64,000 nt of DNA from an uncultured Gammaproteobacteria bacterium. GTDB taxonomy: Bacteria; Patescibacteriota; Microgenomatia; CAZETR01; Amesbacteraceae. A program made the translations under genes and the position numbers. Shown here in pieces: positions 5,090 to 63,556 of the stretch. The stretch spans positions 45,714-109,713 of the forward strand of contig CAZIVL010000001.1 in the NCBI GenBank assembly GCA_964543035.1, read 5' to 3'. Numbering within the stretch: the first letter of the stretch is position 1; every line of letters starts with the position of its first letter. The notes beneath the pieces are model-generated. The model ran no database searches, was not told the DNA's origin, and was given only the letters and a program-made list of their open reading frames with translations.

Positions 5090-7234
5090 CTATGCAGCAG
5101 CCTGCACTTTTCCACTCTTTGCAATTATCCCCTCAGCAATGTTTCTAGGCACTTCGTCATAGTGAGATGGTTCCATATAGTAGGAGGCGCGGCCTTGGGA
5201 CAGTGAGCGCAGCTTGGTGGCATAACCAGACAGTTCAGCCAGAGGCACATGAGCATTGATGATAGTCAGATGTCCGCGCTTATCTGTGCCTTGAATAGCA
5301 GCTCTCTTAGATGATAGATCTCCAATCACGTCTCCCATAAATTCGTCTGGAGTGGAGACCTCCACTTTCATGACTGGTTCTAGGATGGTAGGTTCTGCGA
5401 TCTTGGCCGTGTGTTGGAAAGCCATGGATCCGGCGATCTTAAAGGCCATTTCTGAAGAGTCCACATCGTGGTAGGTTCCGTCAAAGAGGGTGATCTTGGT
5501 GTCAACGGTTGGGAATCCGGCCAAGACTCCGTTTTCCATGGCTTCCACGATTCCTTTTTCGATAGGAGCAATAAACTCTCCTGGAATAGCTCCACCTTTG
5601 ATTGCGTTTACAAACTCAAATCCTGCTCCGCGAGGTAGGGGCTCCATCTTGATCCAACAATGTCCATACTGTCCGCGACCTCCAGATTGGCGAATAAATT
5701 TACCCTCTCCTTCGGCGGCCTTTTTCACAGTTTCCTTGTAGGCCACTTGTGGAGCGCCGGTGGACGCTTCCACGTTAAACTCTCGCTTCATGCGGTCCAC
5801 CAGGATCTCCAGATGCAGCTCACCCATTCCAGAGATGATTGTCTGCCCTGTCTCGTGATTGGACTTGATGCGGAAAGTCGGATCTTCGTCAGACAGTTTG
5901 TTTAGAGCCAGACCCATCTTTTCTTGATCGGACTTTGTTTTTGGCTCAATAGCCAGTGAGATGACGGGTTCCGGGAAAGAGATTGACTCGAGTACAATTG
6001 GTGCCGCTTTTTCACACAGGGTGTTTCCGGTAGTTGTTTCACGCAGTCCCACGAGCGCCACGATCTCTCCCGCATAAGCAGCGTCGATCTCTTCGCGTTT
6101 GTTGGCGTGCATGAGAAGCATTCGGGAGATTCTTTCTTCTTTTTGTTTCGAGGCGTTCCACAGAGATTGTCCAGCCTTGAGTGATCCCGAGTATATTCGG
6201 ACATATGTCAGTCGTCCTACGTGGGGATCAGTCTGGATCTTGAAAGCCAGTCCAGCAAATTTTTCTTCATTGATAGTCTTGCGGCTTACTTCTTCTCCGG
6301 TTTGAGGATTAGTGCCACGGACATGATCCACATCGACTGGCGATGGCAGATATTCGACTACCGCGTCCAGCATTGGTTGCACACCTTTGTTGCGAAGTGA
6401 TGCTCCTGCATATACCGGGACAAGCTTGTAGGCAATCACGGCTCTTCGCATAGCCGCTTTCAGCTCAGCAACAGTGGGCTCTTCGCCGGCTAGGAATTTG
6501 TTCAAGAGGTCATCGTCAGTCTCAGAGATTTGCTCGATTAGTTTGGTTCGCCACTTTTCTACCGTATCTTTCAGGTCTTCGGGAATTGGTTGTTCTTCGT
6601 ATTTAGCACCAGTTTCATCACCCAGCCAGACCAAGGCTTTTCTCTCGAGTAGTAACACCACTCCTCTAAAAGTATTTTCAGCCCCGATCGGGTAAGCCAT
6701 GACAGCGGGGTTTGCTCCCAGTCTATCAATGATGGCTTTGATCGTGCCTTCAAAATTGGCTCCGAGCTTGTCGTTCTTATTGATAAATATAATTCGTGGT
6801 ACTTTGTATTTGTCGGCCTGTCTCCACACTGTTTCAGTCTGTGACTGCACTGTTTCTTCTGCGTCGAGTACCGTGACGGCTCCGTCCAAGACGCGTAGTG
6901 AGCGCTCGACTTCGGCCGTAAAGTCCACGTGTCCGGGAGTGTCGATCAGGTTGATGCGATATGAGCCGTGTTCTACTGGGCTGTTTACATCAGATACTGA
7001 CCAGAAGGTGGTTGTGGCCGCAGATACGATTGTGATTCCGCGCTCTTTTTCCTGAGCCATCCAGTCCATTTGCGTGTCACCTTCGTCGATGTCTCCGATC
7101 TTGTAGGATTTGCCAGTATAAAAAAGAATTCGTTCCGAAGTAGTCGTCTTTCCAGCGTCAATGTGCGCGATTATTCCAATATTACGCACCCGATCTTGCG
7201 GGACAATTCGATTTGTTGTTTTAATATCTGCCAT
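5090..7234 (-). CDS. fusA: Elongation factor G
   Basis: 714-aa ORF; AHIDAGKTT, DTPGHVDF, NKMD motifs; full EF-G domain order. Confidence 0.95.
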   Translation of the reverse strand: MADIKTTNRIVPQDRVRNIGIIAHIDAGKTTTSERILFYTGKSYKIGDIDEGDTQMDWMAQEKERGITIVSAATTTFWSVSDVNSPVEHGSYRINLIDTPGHVDFTAEVERSLRVLDGAVTVLDAEETVQSQTETVWRQADKYKVPRIIFINKNDKLGANFEGTIKAIIDRLGANPAVMAYPIGAENTFRGVVLLLERKALVWLGDETGAKYEEQPIPEDLKDTVEKWRTKLIEQISETDDDLLNKFLAGEEPTVAELKAAMRRAVIAYKLVPVYAGASLRNKGVQPMLDAVVEYLPSPVDVDHVRGTNPQTGEEVSRKTINEEKFAGLAFKIQTDPHVGRLTYVRIYSGSLKAGQSLWNASKQKEERISRMLLMHANKREEIDAAYAGEIVALVGLRETTTGNTLCEKAAPIVLESISFPEPVISLAIEPKTKSDQEKMGLALNKLSDEDPTFRIKSNHETGQTIISGMGELHLEILVDRMKREFNVEASTGAPQVAYKETVKKAAEGEGKFIRQSGGRGQYGHCWIKMEPLPRGAGFEFVNAIKGGAIPGEFIAPIEKGIVEAMENGVLAGFPTVDTKITLFDGTYHDVDSSEMAFKIAGSMAFQHTAKIAEPTILEPVMKVEVSTPDEFMGDVIGDLSSKRAAIQGTDKRGHLTIINAHVPLAELSGYATKLRSLSQGRASYYMEPSHYDEVPRNIAEGIIAKSGKVQAAA

Positions 7235-13335: not shown

Positions 13336-13605
13336 ATGGCTCTAAACACAGACGCAAAAAAACAAGTCATCAACAAATTTGCCCAAGGCAAAGGGGACAC
13401 CGGATCTCCCGAAGTCCAAGCCGCTCTTCTGACCGAAAAGATTTTGAAGCTCGTTGAGCACTTAAAGGAGCACAAGAAAGACAATCACTCACGTCGTGGT
13501 TTGGTAAGTATGGTCAGTAAGCGCAGACGCTTGCTCTACTATCTCCAAAAGAAAGACGCCCCCAGACACAAAGAAATCGCCAAGAAGCTAGGATTATCGA
13601 AATAA
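13336..13605 (+). CDS. rpsO: 30S ribosomal protein S15
   Basis: 89 aa, S15-like (…[15 protein letters not shown]…); rpsO-pnp arrangement. Confidence 0.9.
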
Positions 13606-14002: not shown

Positions 14003-16225
14003 ATGAACAAAAATATAGTAACAAAAAAATTAACCGTAGCCGGTCGTGAACTATCTTTCGAAGTAGGTCGTTTGGCTGCTCAAGCCACGAGTTCAGTCCT
14101 GGCTCGTTACGGTGATTCCACCGTGCTAGCCACAGTCGTAGTCGGAAAAGAAGATCTCAAAAAAGATTACTTCCCCCTATCTGTCGAATATCAAGAAAAG
14201 TTATACGCAGGTGGTCGCATCAAAGGTTCCAAGTGGGTCAAGCGCGAGAGAAATACCGACGAAGATACTCTTTCAGCCAGACTCATTGATCGCTCGATTA
14301 GACCTCTCTTCCCAAAGAGTTTCAAAAACGAAGTCCAAGTCATCGTCATGGTCTTGTCCACCGACACAGACAACGATACTGATGTCCTAGGTATAAATGC
14401 AGTTTCCGCAGCTCTCGCCATCTCACCCATTCCTTTCGAAGGTCCAGTGGCAGCAGTCCGCATGGGACTCGAGAATGGCACTTTGGTTGTAAATCCCAAA
14501 AATGGCAATGCTGAAGGCGTAGATCTAGATTTGGTAGTCACTAGTACCGAGTCTCTCATCCCCATGATCGAAGCCGGAGCCAGCCAAGTATCCGAAGAAG
14601 TGATGTATCAGGGATTAGAGCAAGCCGTCGCCCAAAACAAGCTCATCATCGGCACTATCAACGAGCTCGTCTCGGAAGTCGGCAAATCAAAGATTGTTCT
14701 AAATAGAGCCGGTCCCGATACCAGTTTCGTAGCCGAAGTTGAGAAGATCGCCACTCCTCTTGTAGAAGAGTATTTAAAATCAGCCTCTCAAAAAGAAGGC
14801 AACAGTTTAGAAGATATCGTTTCTCAGCTAGCCGCCAAATATGAAGCAGCTCAAAAAAGCGAGATCCCAGGCATCATCGAAAACTTGGTGTACAAAGTTT
14901 TGCGCACCAATGTTCTGGAAAAAGATTTGCGTGCCGATGGTCGCAAACTAGATGAGATTAGACCCCTAGACGTCCAAGTGGGAGTTCTTCCCAGAGTCCA
15001 TGGATCGGCCATCTTCCAGAGAGGCCAGACTCAGGCTTTGACTGTTACTACCCTTGGGGCCCCGTCTCTTGGTCAGTCTACCGAGAGTGCCGAAGGAGAG
15101 GGCAACAAGCGCTACATGCATCACTACAATTTCCCTCCCTTTAGTACCGGCGAGACTGGCAAAGTGGGCAGTCCCAAGAGACGTGAGATTGGTCATGGCG
15201 CCTTAGCCGAGAGAGCTCTCATCCCAGTTATTCCATCCGAAGCCGAATTTCCGTACGCCATTCGCGTAGTTTCCGAAATTATGAGTTCCAATGGATCATC
15301 TAGTATGGCCTCCTCATGTGGATCCACCATGTCTCTTATGGACGCCGGAGTTCCCTTGAAGGCTCCCGTCTCTGGTATCTCGACTGGTCTTATCACCGGT
15401 TCAGACTATCCCAAGAATCCAAATAGTTACAAGCTGATCACGGACATTATTGGTCTTGAGGATCACTATGGCGATATGGATTTCAAAGTAGCAGGTACTA
15501 GTACAGGCATCACAGCTATTCAGCTGGATACCAAAGTTGCCGGTCTTACCCTGGACATTTGTAAAGAGACTTTTACCCGCGCCAAGGCCGCTCGTGCCGA
15601 AGTGCTGAAAGCCATGTTGGCAGTTCTGGCCGAGCCCCGAAAAGAAGTAGCCGCTACCGCTCCCAAGATCAGTACTGTTCAGATCCCAGTGGACAAAATC
15701 GGTGAATTGATTGGCCCCGGAGGCAAAAATATCAAAAAACTCATGGCCGACACCGGGACAACTGTAGATGTAAATGATGCTGGCAACGTCTTTATCTCAG
15801 GCGTAGATGCAGTTGGTACTGCCAAAGCTATTGCTTTTGTGACAGGTCTTGGCAAAGAGGCTCAGCCCGGAGAGATCTACGAAGGTACAGTCGAGCGCAT
15901 TCAGCCATTCGGTGCATTTGTAAACATTCTTCCCGGCAAAGACGGTTTACTGCATGTCTCCCAGATGGCCGAAGGCTTTGTCTCAGATCCAAATCAATAT
16001 GTAAAAGAAGGTCAGACGATCAAAGTCTGGGTCGTCAGTGTGGATGACCAAGGCAAGATTGCGCTATCCAGTTTGTTCGACGAAGCAGGAGTCCCAAAGC
16101 CCAAAGCTCGTGAAGAGCGCGCTCCTCGCCAGGACTTTGCTCCCCGCGGCGACCGTGGTGATCGTGGTGACTTCAGACCTCGCCCCCAAGGCCACTTCTC
16201 AGCCCCCCGCCGCCGTGGATTCTAA
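14003..16225 (+). CDS. pnp: Polyribonucleotide nucleotidyltransferase (PNPase) with RGD/RG-rich C-terminal tail
   Basis: Two RNase PH domains, KH and S1 domains; ends …PRGDRGDRGDFRPRPQG…RRRGF. Confidence 0.95.
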   Translation: MNKNIVTKKLTVAGRELSFEVGRLAAQATSSVLARYGDSTVLATVVVGKEDLKKDYFPLSVEYQEKLYAGGRIKGSKWVKRERNTDEDTLSARLIDRSIRPLFPKSFKNEVQVIVMVLSTDTDNDTDVLGINAVSAALAISPIPFEGPVAAVRMGLENGTLVVNPKNGNAEGVDLDLVVTSTESLIPMIEAGASQVSEEVMYQGLEQAVAQNKLIIGTINELVSEVGKSKIVLNRAGPDTSFVAEVEKIATPLVEEYLKSASQKEGNSLEDIVSQLAAKYEAAQKSEIPGIIENLVYKVLRTNVLEKDLRADGRKLDEIRPLDVQVGVLPRVHGSAIFQRGQTQALTVTTLGAPSLGQSTESAEGEGNKRYMHHYNFPPFSTGETGKVGSPKRREIGHGALAERALIPVIPSEAEFPYAIRVVSEIMSSNGSSSMASSCGSTMSLMDAGVPLKAPVSGISTGLITGSDYPKNPNSYKLITDIIGLEDHYGDMDFKVAGTSTGITAIQLDTKVAGLTLDICKETFTRAKAARAEVLKAMLAVLAEPRKEVAATAPKISTVQIPVDKIGELIGPGGKNIKKLMADTGTTVDVNDAGNVFISGVDAVGTAKAIAFVTGLGKEAQPGEIYEGTVERIQPFGAFVNILPGKDGLLHVSQMAEGFVSDPNQYVKEGQTIKVWVVSVDDQGKIALSSLFDEAGVPKPKAREERAPRQDFAPRGDRGDRGDFRPRPQGHFSAPRRRGF

Positions 16226-16228
16226 ACC

Positions 16229-16756
16229 TTGCCCCCAATTATGTCCGAGGTTTTAAACCATTTATTTCAAGCATTTACCCCGGATGAAAATCAGTTACGC
16301 TTCGTTGGAAACGCATTTGCTATTCAGGGCAGAGACCAAAGATTGTTGATCACTGCCAAGCACGTAGTCAAAAAAAAGAGACCTTTAGTTTTCAAAGCGT
16401 GGAAGTCGGATGAAACCTTCGATGATTTACGGTTTACCGGTCGGGGCTATTGGAACGACATTGCTCACGCAGTAATTGGAGGTTTCGGAGGTTTAGAAAT
16501 AGAGAGAAAACTCAAGATCTATCAAACATTGTCTTTAGTATCTCTAATTGACCATAGTTTGTATGAATCCACTTTAGCTATTCAGTATTTAAGGGGGTCT
16601 CAAATCGGATATTCGAGATCAAGCGGAAATCGTATTGGTATCCCAGGATCCTCAGGATCCCCAGTTCTTGACGAGCAAAACAACGTGGTTGGAGTACATT
16701 GTGGAGCTATTGATCTGGCCTCCGTCGTATGGGGAGTGGCCTACAGATTGAGATAA
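16229..16756 (+). CDS. Small trypsin-like serine protease (chymotrypsin fold)
   Basis: TAKHVV (His), D near residue 87, GSSGSPV (Ser) in canonical order; 175 aa. Confidence 0.55.
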   Translation: MPPIMSEVLNHLFQAFTPDENQLRFVGNAFAIQGRDQRLLITAKHVVKKKRPLVFKAWKSDETFDDLRFTGRGYWNDIAHAVIGGFGGLEIERKLKIYQTLSLVSLIDHSLYESTLAIQYLRGSQIGYSRSSGNRIGIPGSSGSPVLDEQNNVVGVHCGAIDLASVVWGVAYRLR

Positions 16757-16786
16757 TTAAGTTGTCAATTGTAGTAAACTAATTAC

Positions 16787-17830
16787 GTGGAAGATCAACT
16801 CACAGCGGATATCGCAAAACTAAAAGCCCGTGTGGACGGCATCAAGCTCCCAGATGATTTGAGAGAAAAAGTAGACCTGATGTTGGCTCGTCTTGAGCGC
16901 CAGGCCAAATACGGTGGATATTCTCTGGAGTATGAGCAAGTCAGTCATTACATCGACTGGGTAGCGAGTCTCCCCTGGGACATTTCTACCAAAGATATTT
17001 TGGATCTCGGTCACGCCAAGCAAGTTCTGGACTCACATCACTTTGGTCTAGAAGATGTCAAGCAAAGATTTTTAGAATATCTCTCGGTACTTTTATTAAA
17101 CGAGCAAACCAATCCCAATTATCACGCCCCCATATTACTTATGGTGGGCCTTGTGGGTACTGGTAAGACGACTCTAGCCAAAAGTCTGGCCGAGTCCATC
17201 GGTCGCAAATTTGTCCGTATCCCGTTTGGAGGCATGAGTTCAGCTCTAGATCTCAGAGGTCTCTCTCGCACTCATCCCGAGGCCGAGCCAGGTCAGATCA
17301 TCAAGGCCTTAAAGCGTGCTGGTTCCAAAAATCCAGTCATTCTCTTAGATGAGATCGATCGTATCGCCCCCTCAGCCCACGGCGAGATCATGGGTGTACT
17401 TGTAGAGCTTCTGGACCCCGAGCAAAACGCTGGTTTTGTAGATCATTATCTCGATTATCCAGTCGACTTGTCTCAGGTGTTGTTTATAGCCACCGGCAAC
17501 AATACGACAAATATCAGTACCGCCGTCATGGACCGCCTGGAGCCCATCACCATGCCTTCTTATACCGATGAAGAAAAGATTAGGATTGCCAAAGATTATA
17601 TTTTCCCCTCCGAAGTAAAAAGTTCCGGTCTCCCAGAAGGCGCTCTTACCATTGACGAAGCTGTTTGGCCCAAGATAGTGAGACCCTTAGGTTTTGACGC
17701 CGGTATTCGCACGCTGGAGAGGACCATCCAGGGCATGACCAGAAAAGTCGCTATGCAAATAGTTGAGGGCAAAGCCCAAAAGATTCATATCAACGACCAA
17801 AACGTAAAAACCTTCCTGCCCAGTTATTAG
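16787..17830 (+). CDS. Lon-like AAA+ ATPase module without S16 protease domain
   Basis: GTG start; Lon-specific segment (…YLDWVASLPWD…), Walker A GLVGTGKTT, LLDEIDR, LLDPEQN, sensor region; ORF stops right after the AAA+ domain. Confidence 0.75.
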   Translation: MEDQLTADIAKLKARVDGIKLPDDLREKVDLMLARLERQAKYGGYSLEYEQVSHYIDWVASLPWDISTKDILDLGHAKQVLDSHHFGLEDVKQRFLEYLSVLLLNEQTNPNYHAPILLMVGLVGTGKTTLAKSLAESIGRKFVRIPFGGMSSALDLRGLSRTHPEAEPGQIIKALKRAGSKNPVILLDEIDRIAPSAHGEIMGVLVELLDPEQNAGFVDHYLDYPVDLSQVLFIATGNNTTNISTAVMDRLEPITMPSYTDEEKIRIAKDYIFPSEVKSSGLPEGALTIDEAVWPKIVRPLGFDAGIRTLERTIQGMTRKVAMQIVEGKAQKIHINDQNVKTFLPSY

Positions 17831-17887: not shown

Positions 17888-18109
17888 ATGAAAATAGTCC
17901 AGAACAAAAAATTACTCATAGGCTTAATCATTTACTTGCTGATTGGCATAATTTGGATGTGGACTGGATATACAAAATCAAACGCTCTGTTAATCGGTAT
18001 AGGCGCCGAGCCTGCTCCACTCGCCCAACTTATTACTAGTCCGTACATATATCTTTATATCCTCTTCTGGCCATTTTTTGTGTTTACCAATTTTCTGCAA
18101 ACTATATGA
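17888..18109 (+). CDS. Small membrane protein (hypothetical)
   Basis: 73 aa, two TM helices. Confidence 0.35.
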   Translation: MKIVQNKKLLIGLIIYLLIGIIWMWTGYTKSNALLIGIGAEPAPLAQLITSPYIYLYILFWPFFVFTNFLQTI

Positions 18110-18606
18110 AAATCGCCATTCTGTCAGACATTCACGACAATATTTGGAATCTTGAAAAAGCCCTTCCGCTTATCAAGTCCGCTTCCTGCAAAGCTCTGAT
18201 TTTTTGTGGTGACTTTGTCGCCCCATTTACTGCCAATCTAGTTTTCGAAATAGGCCTTCCCATTTATGCCTGTTTCGGCAATAACGACGAGGACCACCAC
18301 GCGATCGCTAGAAGATTAAATGCAACTCAATTATTTGCTTTAACTGATGAATTCGGAGAAGTCGAATTAGACGGCAAAAAGATTGCTTTCTGTCATTATC
18401 CAAAACTAGGAGAGTTACTAGCAGGTACTGGGGAGTACGCAGCCGTTTTTCATGGCCACACTCACGATGCTTATAACAAAAAAGTAGGGGAAACAATCCT
18501 AGCCAATCCCGGTAGCATCTGCGGTATCCAGGGTGGCAAGCCAGGTCTCGCCTCCTTCGGCATCTACGACACGACTGCTCATTCTTACGAGCAGATCACC
18601 CTATGA
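18106..18606 (+). CDS. Metallophosphoesterase (YfcE/MJ0936-like phosphodiesterase)
   Basis: Motifs SDIHDN, GDFVAP, GNND, GHTH. Confidence 0.75.
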   Translation: MKIAILSDIHDNIWNLEKALPLIKSASCKALIFCGDFVAPFTANLVFEIGLPIYACFGNNDEDHHAIARRLNATQLFALTDEFGEVELDGKKIAFCHYPKLGELLAGTGEYAAVFHGHTHDAYNKKVGETILANPGSICGIQGGKPGLASFGIYDTTAHSYEQITL

Positions 18607-18860
18607 AACTAATTCTGGCTATCCTTCTATGTATCAGCATAGTAGTTTTTTCTATCACACTTTTTATGAATAGCAGTTTCAAAACAGTTACCTACAAAAA
18701 AGCCAATCCAAAAGTAATTGATGCGTACAAAAAGCTAGAGGAAGAGCGTTCCAAGGGGAAAAGCATCTTTTTTACCCCAGTCCCAGATGATGTTTGCTTC
18801 GCCAAAGAAATATTTGGGAAAAGACTATTCGAAAGATGTATCAGCTACACTGATCTATGA
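18603..18860 (+). CDS. Small membrane-anchored protein (hypothetical)
   Basis: 85 aa, N-terminal TM. Confidence 0.35.
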   Translation: MKLILAILLCISIVVFSITLFMNSSFKTVTYKKANPKVIDAYKKLEEERSKGKSIFFTPVPDDVCFAKEIFGKRLFERCISYTDL

Positions 18861-21304: not shown

Positions 21305-21490
21305 ATGGCACCCAAAAACAAGCTCATCAAAGGCAGTAGTATCCCTGTCGCATACCTTATTGATTACATCAAAGATGGATACACCATATCGGAGTTTCTT
21401 TCTTCCTATCCCTGGCTCAAAAGACAAAATGTGGAGAAGATTCTGGACGAGATAAAGCACAAGGAATTCTCGTTCGGACATGCCCAGTAA
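21305..21490 (+). CDS. DUF433-family small protein (putative antitoxin)
   Basis: 61 aa; …IPVAYLIDYIKDGYTISEFLSSYPWLKRQNVEKILDEI matches the DUF433 pattern. Confidence 0.55.
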   Translation: MAPKNKLIKGSSIPVAYLIDYIKDGYTISEFLSSYPWLKRQNVEKILDEIKHKEFSFGHAQ

Positions 21491-21869
21491 AAAGTCAGAT
21501 CTTCAACTATACGCCGATGAGTGTTTTCCGATTCCTTCCGTAACTTTTCTAAAATCACTTGGGTATTCAGTTATTCATGCATCAGATTTGGGTCACACTG
21601 CAGAGTCAGACAAATTTCACTACAAATTAACCCAAAAAATAAACCGTACACTAATTACTTTTGACCGAGATTTTTTAATATATAAGAATTCAAATCCCAT
21701 AAATCACCCAGGGATAATAGTCATATCCTGTGCACCATCGGAAATAAATCTCGTATGCAAAAAGTTTTTGTCAAAAATTTCAAAAAGCTCAGTCTCCGAC
21801 GCTTTATTGATAGTCACCAAAGACAAGATCACCAAATCAAAGCATGACGTCAAATCAGAAATAAAATAA
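21480..21869 (+). CDS. DUF5615/PIN-like (Mut7-C type) protein (putative toxin)
   Basis: 129 aa; LYADECFP…LGY start typical of DUF5615; 11-nt overlap with the DUF433 gene; AT-rich islet. Confidence 0.5.
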   Translation: MPSKKSDLQLYADECFPIPSVTFLKSLGYSVIHASDLGHTAESDKFHYKLTQKINRTLITFDRDFLIYKNSNPINHPGIIVISCAPSEINLVCKKFLSKISKSSVSDALLIVTKDKITKSKHDVKSEIK

Positions 21870-63293: not shown

Positions 63294-63556
63294 GCCTGGA
63301 GATGGGCGACTACGCCGTCTTTTGACGGTGAGGAAAGTCCAGACAGCAGAAAGCAGGGTGTCCAGCATAAGCTGGAGCGGGTAACCGCCAGTTAGAGCAA
63401 CAGTGACGAACCGAGGTAAAGCTCGGGTGAAACGGGCAATCCTCCCCGCTGCAATCTCCGAATTGGCCGTTTGAGGTAGCTTTCCCAAGGCCTAAAGCAT
63501 GAGAGCATCAGAAAGATTGTCGCTGACAACAGAATCTGGCTTACTATTCTCCAGGC
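63294..63556 (+). ncRNA. rnpB: RNase P RNA (bacterial type A, compact ~263 nt)
   Basis: P4 strands GAGGAAAGUCC…GCAGGGUG and ACAGAAUCUGGCUUA; GGGUGAAAC and GGUAGC…GGCCUAAAGCAUGAG regions align to E. coli M1 RNA; P1 pairing GCCUGGAGA/UCUCCAGGC; TATAAT 5 nt upstream. Confidence 0.8.

Follow-up and report, generated by a model that had tools for sequence, protein, structure and literature searches.

Every Lon, whether of the A, B, BA, or C type, is defined as a single chain in which ATPase and protease domains are combined (PMC9569914). A three-helix bundle caps the LonA ring, and in Yersinia pestis Lon residues Y294 and W297 stabilize a pore loop in which Y398 and I399 form a pincer that grips the substrate; an I399A substitution impairs degradation and affects ATPase activity little (PMC7239648). 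Here, we analyze a 64,000-nucleotide stretch of DNA (contig CAZIVL010000001.1, positions 45,714 to 109,713 of the forward strand; henceforth the window), in which two open reading frames (ORFs) follow pnp: ORF A, which is predicted to encode a small serine protease, and ORF B, which is predicted to encode a 347-residue ATPase related to Lon. An earlier note on this DNA had raised two possibilities, either a split ATP-dependent protease, in which ORF A would supply the peptidase and ORF B a Lon-type unfoldase, or a stand-alone AAA+ module. We favor, at a probability of roughly 60%, that two unrelated genes stand side by side, a Lon-derived non-degradative ATPase and a one-off inserted serine protease, and that they do not form a split protease.

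ORF B is clearly a LonA-derived ATPase that has neither the LON N-terminal domain nor the S16 Ser-Lys peptidase domain. NCBIfam model TIGR00763 ("lon") matched ORF B over model positions 249 to 576 of 795 (E = 3e-98), and the score of 330 bits did not reach the equivalog cutoff of 608 bits because both ends of the model were unmatched. Pfam recognized AAA (E = 5e-20) and Lon_lid (E = 8e-10), and residues 6-7 to 343-344 aligned with residues 244 to 577 of 793-residue LonA chains in the PDB (best E = 6e-79), with 40 to 42% identity to LonA of Bacillus subtilis and Meiothermus taiwanensis. An AlphaFold2 model built with 29 family members (pLDDT 79.5) had three helices at the N terminus, then the AAA+ alpha/beta domain and the lid, and the best 50 PDB matches in a fold search with that model were all LonA or LONP1. 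The LON substrate-binding domain is absent, as ORF B starts at about LonA residue 244, and the retained three-helix bundle is all that is left of the N-terminal region. For comparison, 87 related ATPase loci were assembled, 7 of them (L001 to L004 and L005 to L007) reached from six close homologs and 80 drawn from a scan of GTDB species representatives, in which at least 363 genomes had a relative of the ATPase and the best 80 were inspected; 83 of the loci are distinct, because four genomes came in by both routes. Similarity to the S16 domain was absent by tblastn from every frame of the 64-kb window, from the 4 kb on either side in the 80 loci, and from the 6 kb on either side in the 7, all with a single E. 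coli Lon P-domain sequence as the probe, such that divergent S16 domains could escape. The larger ORFs of the window that had been left unassigned were tuf, fusA, dnaJ, nusA, recA, YceG, and an HD/KH protein, with no protease among them. We conclude that ORF B is not a Lon protease, because three or four of the features that define LonA fail. Thus, the earlier description of a Lon-specific AAA+ protein that ends right after its ATPase module and keeps only a short piece of the N-domain was borne out by the profile, PDB, and fold searches.

The short form recurs far beyond this genome. Searches of 5.8 billion protein clusters, made for both ORFs, returned for ORF B hundreds of clusters of 346 to 350 residues with 64 to 92% identity (56 to 92% overall), all of which carried AAA and Lon_lid and none of which carried Lon_C, under source names such as "Lon protease [Candidatus Amesbacteria]," "AAA family ATPase [Patescibacteria group]," and "ATP-dependent Lon protease." The best 80 of the at least 363 representatives came from Amesbacteria, Shapirobacteria, Gottesmanbacteria, Beckwithbacteria, Roizmanbacteria, Woesebacteria, and Cerribacteria and from unnamed Microgenomates or Patescibacteria. 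The ATPase ended within 0 to 5 residues of the last residue of ORF B in 80/80 loci, with the next gene immediately 3'. Judged by these alignments, the 347-residue form marks a family whose length is conserved and which is strongly constrained throughout the Microgenomates. The Walker A Lys, Walker B Asp-Glu, sensor-1, Arg finger, and sensor-2 were kept in at least 196 of the 197 family sequences on which all residue counts are based. ORF B keeps every residue needed for ATP binding and hydrolysis, and catalysis itself is predicted. Moreover, Tyr55 and Trp58 of the three-helix bundle, the counterparts of Y. pestis Y294 and W297, are invariant or nearly so.

Pore loop 1, in contrast to that of LonA, is remodeled. 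The LonA sequence R-R-T-Y-[VI]-G-A-M-P-G reads S-R-x-[H/R/Y/S/Q]-[P/A/S]-[D/E]-[A/S]-E-P-G in the family. The position of the gripping Tyr is occupied by His in 99, Arg in 30, and Tyr in 16 of the 197 sequences, and the position after it by Pro in 141; ORF B itself has H163-P164. Acidic residues are fixed in the same loop (D/E165 in 195 and E167 in 196 sequences). The aromatic/hydrophobic pair equivalent to Y398/I399 was found neither in ORF B nor in most of the family. Finally, the family terminates in the consensus [FY]-L-P-[TS]-[YW]-COOH, an aromatic end that lies where the LonA interdomain linker would begin.

The leading alternative is gene fission, with the S16 domain encoded elsewhere in Microgenomates genomes and assembling with the ATPase in trans. 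Strong constraint on the family and a C terminus that is conserved exactly at the start of the interdomain linker are what such an arrangement might leave behind, and the S16 search was confined to the window and the locus flanks. That search, with its single probe, nonetheless gave no similarity around any of the loci, and loss of the Tyr/Ile pincer speaks against the delivery of polypeptide to any chamber. We consider fission unlikely.

The genes that surround the ATPase may bear on its function. Neighbors over the 80 loci were RNase J in 54, PNPase in 45, rpsO in 37, FtsK in 34, and UDG in 32, and in 34 loci the PNPase match ended within 400 nt 5' of the ATPase. The ATPase might be an accessory of RNA metabolism, a partner of PNPase and RNase J that remodels, for instance, a degradosome-like assembly or the Arg/Gly-rich tail of PNPase. 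The location of the ATPase between pnp and the RNase J gene fits that idea, as does the pairing of a basic, R/G-rich PNPase tail, here and in relatives, with an acidic pore loop. The order nusA-infB-rpsO-pnp-...-rnj-ftsK is conserved housekeeping synteny, however, and adjacency to pnp and rnj weighs little for that reason. Moreover, an entire clade has the ATPase beside groES-groEL instead, and the ATPase seems to own a promoter. Such a role in RNA metabolism is improbable.

The clade with groES-groEL includes Roizmanbacteria and others. There, 17 loci (L032, L038, L050, L064, L066, L068, L069, L073, L076, L078 to L081, L083 to L085, and L087) have the ATPase and putative groES-groEL in divergent orientation, approximately 40 to 160 bp apart; groES and groEL were called from N-terminal sequence and length. 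Just 5' of the ATPase ATG in these loci is a conserved motif, TTTTGTCAA-N16-TAGTCTGCTAAC, which may be a promoter or an operator but is not a CIRCE element. The divergent arrangement is a hint of a proteostasis role for the ATPase. With up to 4 mismatches allowed, neither the region 5' of the ATPase nor the groES-ATPase spacers contained a CIRCE/HrcA operator, and a CIRCE-like site upstream of dnaJ in the window (7401) had one arm only. We note that a 156-residue ORF is located convergently 3' of the ATPase in 14 of the 17 loci.

Expression of the ATPase appears to start from a -10 box of its own and without a leader, to judge from comparison of upstream regions. In 54 of 77 loci of the pnp-context clade, a TAnnnT box, often TG-TAAACT, ended 4 to 10 nt 5' of the start codon (shuffled sequences, mean of 20.6, standard deviation of 3.9, and maximum of 30), and a TAnnnT box with an upstream TG was present in 30 (shuffled sequences, mean of 4.8 and maximum of 11). 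Only 2 of the 77 had a Shine-Dalgarno-like motif before the start. In the window, the box reads TAAACT and lies 3' of the ORF A stop and 5' of the ORF B start, which points to leaderless transcription from a promoter that belongs to the ATPase gene itself. A generic sigma-70 promoter scan did not flag the TAAACT site, and that scan, like the terminator scan run with it, performed at chance level and is uninformative.

What ORF A encodes was approached through profiles, homologs, and fold. Profile matches to trypsin-like families were weak and confined to the GSSGSP stretch; Pfam Trypsin_2 gave 27.0 bits over residues 139 to 156 only, against a cutoff of 27.6, and the precomputed annotation of the public gene call for ORF A (P0121) lists PF13365. 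phmmer against 1.84 billion representatives recovered only four small homologs of 177 to 201 residues, and a profile search added two further clusters, for about 6 among the 5.8 billion. The triad residues H45 (in TAxHV), D77, and S142 (in GxSGSP) were shared by the four distant homologs and invariant in 5/5 of the sequences aligned. The nearest solved sequences were the V8/Spl glutamyl endopeptidases (E of about 1e-3). An AlphaFold2 model (pLDDT 76, pTM 0.79) was a double beta-barrel that resembled the DegS/HtrA catalytic domains (TM of about 0.7, E = 1e-7) and also matched small viral PA-clan proteases. Neither PDZ nor another accessory domain was found by Pfam search, and no signal peptide was evident at the N terminus by eye. 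ORF A is probably a cytoplasmic, minimal chymotrypsin-fold (PA-clan) serine protease, genuine but very rare. The chymotrypsin fold with His, Asp, and Ser in canonical order had been read from the DNA alone in the earlier note and stands; the ORF of 175 residues that begins 4 nt after pnp is present as described, but the likelier product has 171 residues and starts at the ATG at 16241, 15 nt 3' of the pnp stop, because homologs begin MSE... and the public call has 171 residues. We note that in searches of PHROGs and PADLOC, ORF A matched RT-Protease_XI (E = 2e-5) and ORF B matched a full-length-Lon PHROG; a phage or defense system was considered and rejected, as the matches amounted to no more than general resemblance to AAA+ or trypsin-like proteins.

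ORF A and ORF B are not a conserved pair. A homolog of ORF A was found near the ATPase in 0/7 loci of close homologs and in 0/80 representative loci (tblastn, E ≤ 1e-3), or 0/87 related loci in all (83 distinct). The 7 loci of close homologs read nusA-infB-X-rpsO-pnp-ATPase-(metallophosphoesterase)-UDG-RNase J-FtsK, with an empty pnp-ATPase junction. When the comparison was turned around, no AAA+ gene stood beside an ORF A homolog in any of three contexts examined, where the neighbors were NUDIX and hydrolases in one, Peptidase_M15_4/RibD_C in another, and MerR/adh_short/NUDIX/RimK in the third. A convergent NUDIX hydrolase gene follows the ORF A-family protease both in L088/L089 (P0122) and in L093 (P0124), in neighborhoods that otherwise differ, and the recurrence may be fortuitous or reflect a weak association.

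The closest relative, at 92% protein and about 82% DNA identity, aligned with both flanks of ORF A and had no counterpart of window positions 16126 to 16761; its pnp stop and ATPase GTG start are 28 nt apart. Because pnp is joined to the ATPase by those 28 nt, ORF A is best described as a clean insertion of approximately 540 nt. The same relative has a 100-N gap (L005, identical to L008, positions 5791 to 5890) flanked by a duplicated stretch of approximately 60 nt from the ATPase 5' end, and the public ATPase call in L005 is shortened to 316 residues because of this scaffold-join artifact. An ORF A hidden in the gap was rejected, as the gap is inside the duplicated overlap of the ATPase 5' end and the 28-nt junction precedes it. 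GC content at third codon positions was 0.395 in ORF A, 0.37 to 0.42 in the two other ORFs that are absent from relatives, and 0.44 to 0.60 in conserved neighbors. In other lineages, the pnp-ATPase junction holds a Phd/YefM antitoxin, a PIN toxin, a Fumble-type kinase, or membrane or unknown proteins, and no protease was found there in relatives with large gaps. Adjacency of ORF A and ORF B seems coincidental, because the junction takes up unrelated genes elsewhere.

A split two-component protease is therefore very improbable. The two genes are adjacent on one strand with a 30-nt gap and no terminator-like site between them, the triad of ORF A is intact, and so are the ATPase motifs of ORF B. 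The proposal fails, however, on co-occurrence, the absence of which the earlier note had itself named as refuting, on the signature of recent, AT-rich insertion of ORF A 5' of the ATPase's putative own -10 box, and on loss of the aromatic pore loop that would translocate substrate; in addition, ORF A has the size of a monomeric PA-clan domain and shows no obvious means of forming a chamber. Recruitment of ORF A as a peptidase acting in trans for the ATPase in this single lineage is about as improbable. Last, an assembly error, a frameshift, or a decaying pseudogene of a normal lon, to which the partial, sub-cutoff NCBIfam match might point and of which the earlier note had named the first two as refuting outcomes, is ruled out for practical purposes by an end point common to 80/80 representatives from many candidate phyla, by ATPase catalytic residues invariant in 197 sequences, and by a downstream region with neither room (276 nt to the next conserved gene) nor S16 similarity in any frame.

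We return to a Lon-derived non-degradative ATPase beside an inserted protease. Under that reading, the ATPase family would have lost the LonA substrate-binding and S16 peptidase domains in the course of evolution, and ORF B would form a Lon-like hexamer. ATP would be spent on the non-degradative remodeling or holding of clients, in the manner of a chaperone or an adaptor, rather than on feeding a protease chamber. Comparison among loci suggests a leaderless mRNA for ORF B, transcribed with the help of the gene's own -10 box. ORF A, a single AT-rich gene, would have been inserted 3' of the pnp stop and 5' of the ATPase -10 box in this lineage only and most likely works alone. The stand-alone AAA+ module of the earlier note is thus the version we favor, as a length-conserved family with neither a protease domain nor a protease neighbor.

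Several points weigh against it. Some members of the family (16/197) still have the Tyr of pore loop 1, and the conserved aromatic tail could be a docking element for some partner, although it might merely be the structural end of the lid. The pnp and groES-groEL contexts are each limited to one clade and may stem from inherited synteny, not from function. ORF A and ORF B may be cotranscribed here, as no terminator-like site was found on the + strand between pnp, ORF A, and ORF B by the chance-level generic scan, and read-through from pnp and ORF A is possible for that reason. Moreover, we infer "non-degradative" with an S16 search that covered the 64-kb window and the locus flanks. A stronger version is tentative: the ATPase would be a natural Lon wholly without proteolysis, an ATP-driven, non-threading chaperone or remodeler with an acidic pore, perhaps the only Lon-type protein left in these reduced genomes and the first protease-free branch of Lon.

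The block around the two genes (Table 1) continues 3' of ORF B with a 73-residue ORF, a metallophosphoesterase gene, an 85-residue ORF, a UDG-family gene, and the RNase J gene. The 73- and 85-residue ORFs are wedged among conserved genes, have a GC content of 0.36 to 0.37, and, like ORF A, look like recent lineage-specific insertions into a housekeeping block. On the other side, the 3' end of the PNPase gene (window 16126 to 16225) encodes a basic Arg/Gly-rich C-terminal tail, RGDRGDRGDFRPRPQGHFSAPRRRGF; repeats of GGFGGGDRGGSRGG occur in the PNPase tails of relatives (also L026 and L046), and the sequence of the tail is poorly conserved. Directly 3' of the RNase J gene, a 61-residue ORF overlaps the start of a 129-residue ORF on the + strand (window 21305 to 21869) in a toxin-antitoxin-like arrangement, and the closest relative has a DUF433 gene at that position. 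Finally, an RNase P RNA of approximately 263 nt (window 63294 to 63556, + strand) had the archaeal-type RF00373 as its best Rfam model, with a match over the full-length model at 98 bits against a gathering score of 84, in a genome that is otherwise of the Patescibacteria/Microgenomates.

Table 1. Coordinates in the window of the two genes, their predicted functional sites, and nearby features
Feature	Position	Strand	Remark
rpsO	13336-13605		
pnp (PNPase)	14003-16225	+	Upstream neighbor kept in the Amesbacteria-type clade
ORF A, predicted minimal PA-clan serine protease, 171 residues (175 from the TTG at 16229)	16241-16756	+	
ORF A, predicted catalytic codons	His, 16361-16363; Asp, 16457-16459; Ser, 16652-16654	+	
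Putative -10-like box TAAACT	16775-16780	+	6 nt 5' of the ORF B GTG; no Shine-Dalgarno
ORF B, Lon-derived AAA+ ATPase, 347 residues, GTG start	16787-17830	+	
ORF B, Walker A/P-loop G121-LVGTGKT-T129	17147-17173	+	G, G, G, K, and T invariant in 197/197
ORF B, remodeled pore loop 1, S160-RTHPEAEP-G169	17264-17293	+	
ORF B, Walker B I185-LLDEI-D191	17339-17359	+	D188 in 197/197, E189 in 196/197
ORF B, sensor-1 Asn238 to Arg finger Arg250	17498-17536	+	Both invariant in 197/197
ORF B, sensor-2 Arg308	17708-17710	+	Invariant in 197/197
ORF B, extreme C terminus F-L-P-S-Y-COOH	17813-17827	+	Tail census, 197 sequences
73-residue hydrophobic ORF	17888-18109	+	No homolog in 80 loci; no Pfam or PHROG match; GC of 0.369
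85-residue hydrophobic ORF	18603-18860	+	No counterpart in relatives; no family match

A trypsin-fold/Lon split protease would be a new class of ATP-dependent protease; the evidence is against it, and the claim should be dropped. What is left standing is a strongly conserved Lon derivative with neither protease nor N-domain, whose acidic pore loop is degenerate and which occurs throughout a class-level lineage of ultra-small bacteria of the candidate phyla radiation (CPR). No earlier account of a protease-less Lon in CPR, Patescibacteria, or Microgenomates was found in full-text literature searches. Databases label the family "Lon protease," and counting the gene as a protease would be wrong and would affect the proteostasis capacity inferred for CPR bacteria. 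If the genomes are truly without an S16 domain, they are a natural experiment that parts the debated chaperone activity of Lon from proteolysis.

How the two proteins compare with known systems can be stated gene by gene. ORF A resembles the S1B and S1C proteases (V8/Spl and the DegS/HtrA catalytic domain) in that TAxHV, D[IV]A, and GxSGSP occur in order and the model is a double beta-barrel, but it has 171 residues only, scores below the Pfam cutoff, is 13 to 19% identical to its structural matches, and belongs to an extremely rare family. Taken as a pair, ORF A and ORF B recall ClpXP and HslUV, in which ATPase and peptidase are encoded by separate genes, as the earlier note had proposed. ClpXP and HslUV combine co-occurring genes, a chamber-forming peptidase, and an ATPase with aromatic pore loops; in contrast, co-occurrence is lacking for ORF A and ORF B, and ORF B is without the aromatic pore loop. 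ORF B is closest to LonA (MEROPS S16; E. coli, B. subtilis, M. taiwanensis, and Y. pestis), as the whole protein is about 40 to 42% identical to residues 244 to 577 or so and contains the three-helix bundle of the N-terminal domain with its Y/W pair, Walker A and B, sensor-1, the Arg finger, sensor-2, and the Lon lid. It differs in the missing LON N-domain and S16 Ser-Lys domain and in a pore loop that reads [HRYS]-P-[DE]-A-E rather than Y-[VI]-G-A-M. The engineered AAA+ domain of E. coli Lon (6n2i) is similar in extent, with ORF B residues 10 to 344 aligned to chain residues 12 to 339 (target-normalized TM of 0.63), yet it is a laboratory truncation with a canonical pore loop, whereas ORF B is a natural, conserved truncation in which the loop has been remodeled. 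A further parallel is LonC of M. taiwanensis, likewise a descendant of Lon that gave up one of the two activities, keeping the protease with a degenerate ATPase and no ATP-powered unfolding (PMC3391209). ORF B would be its mirror image.

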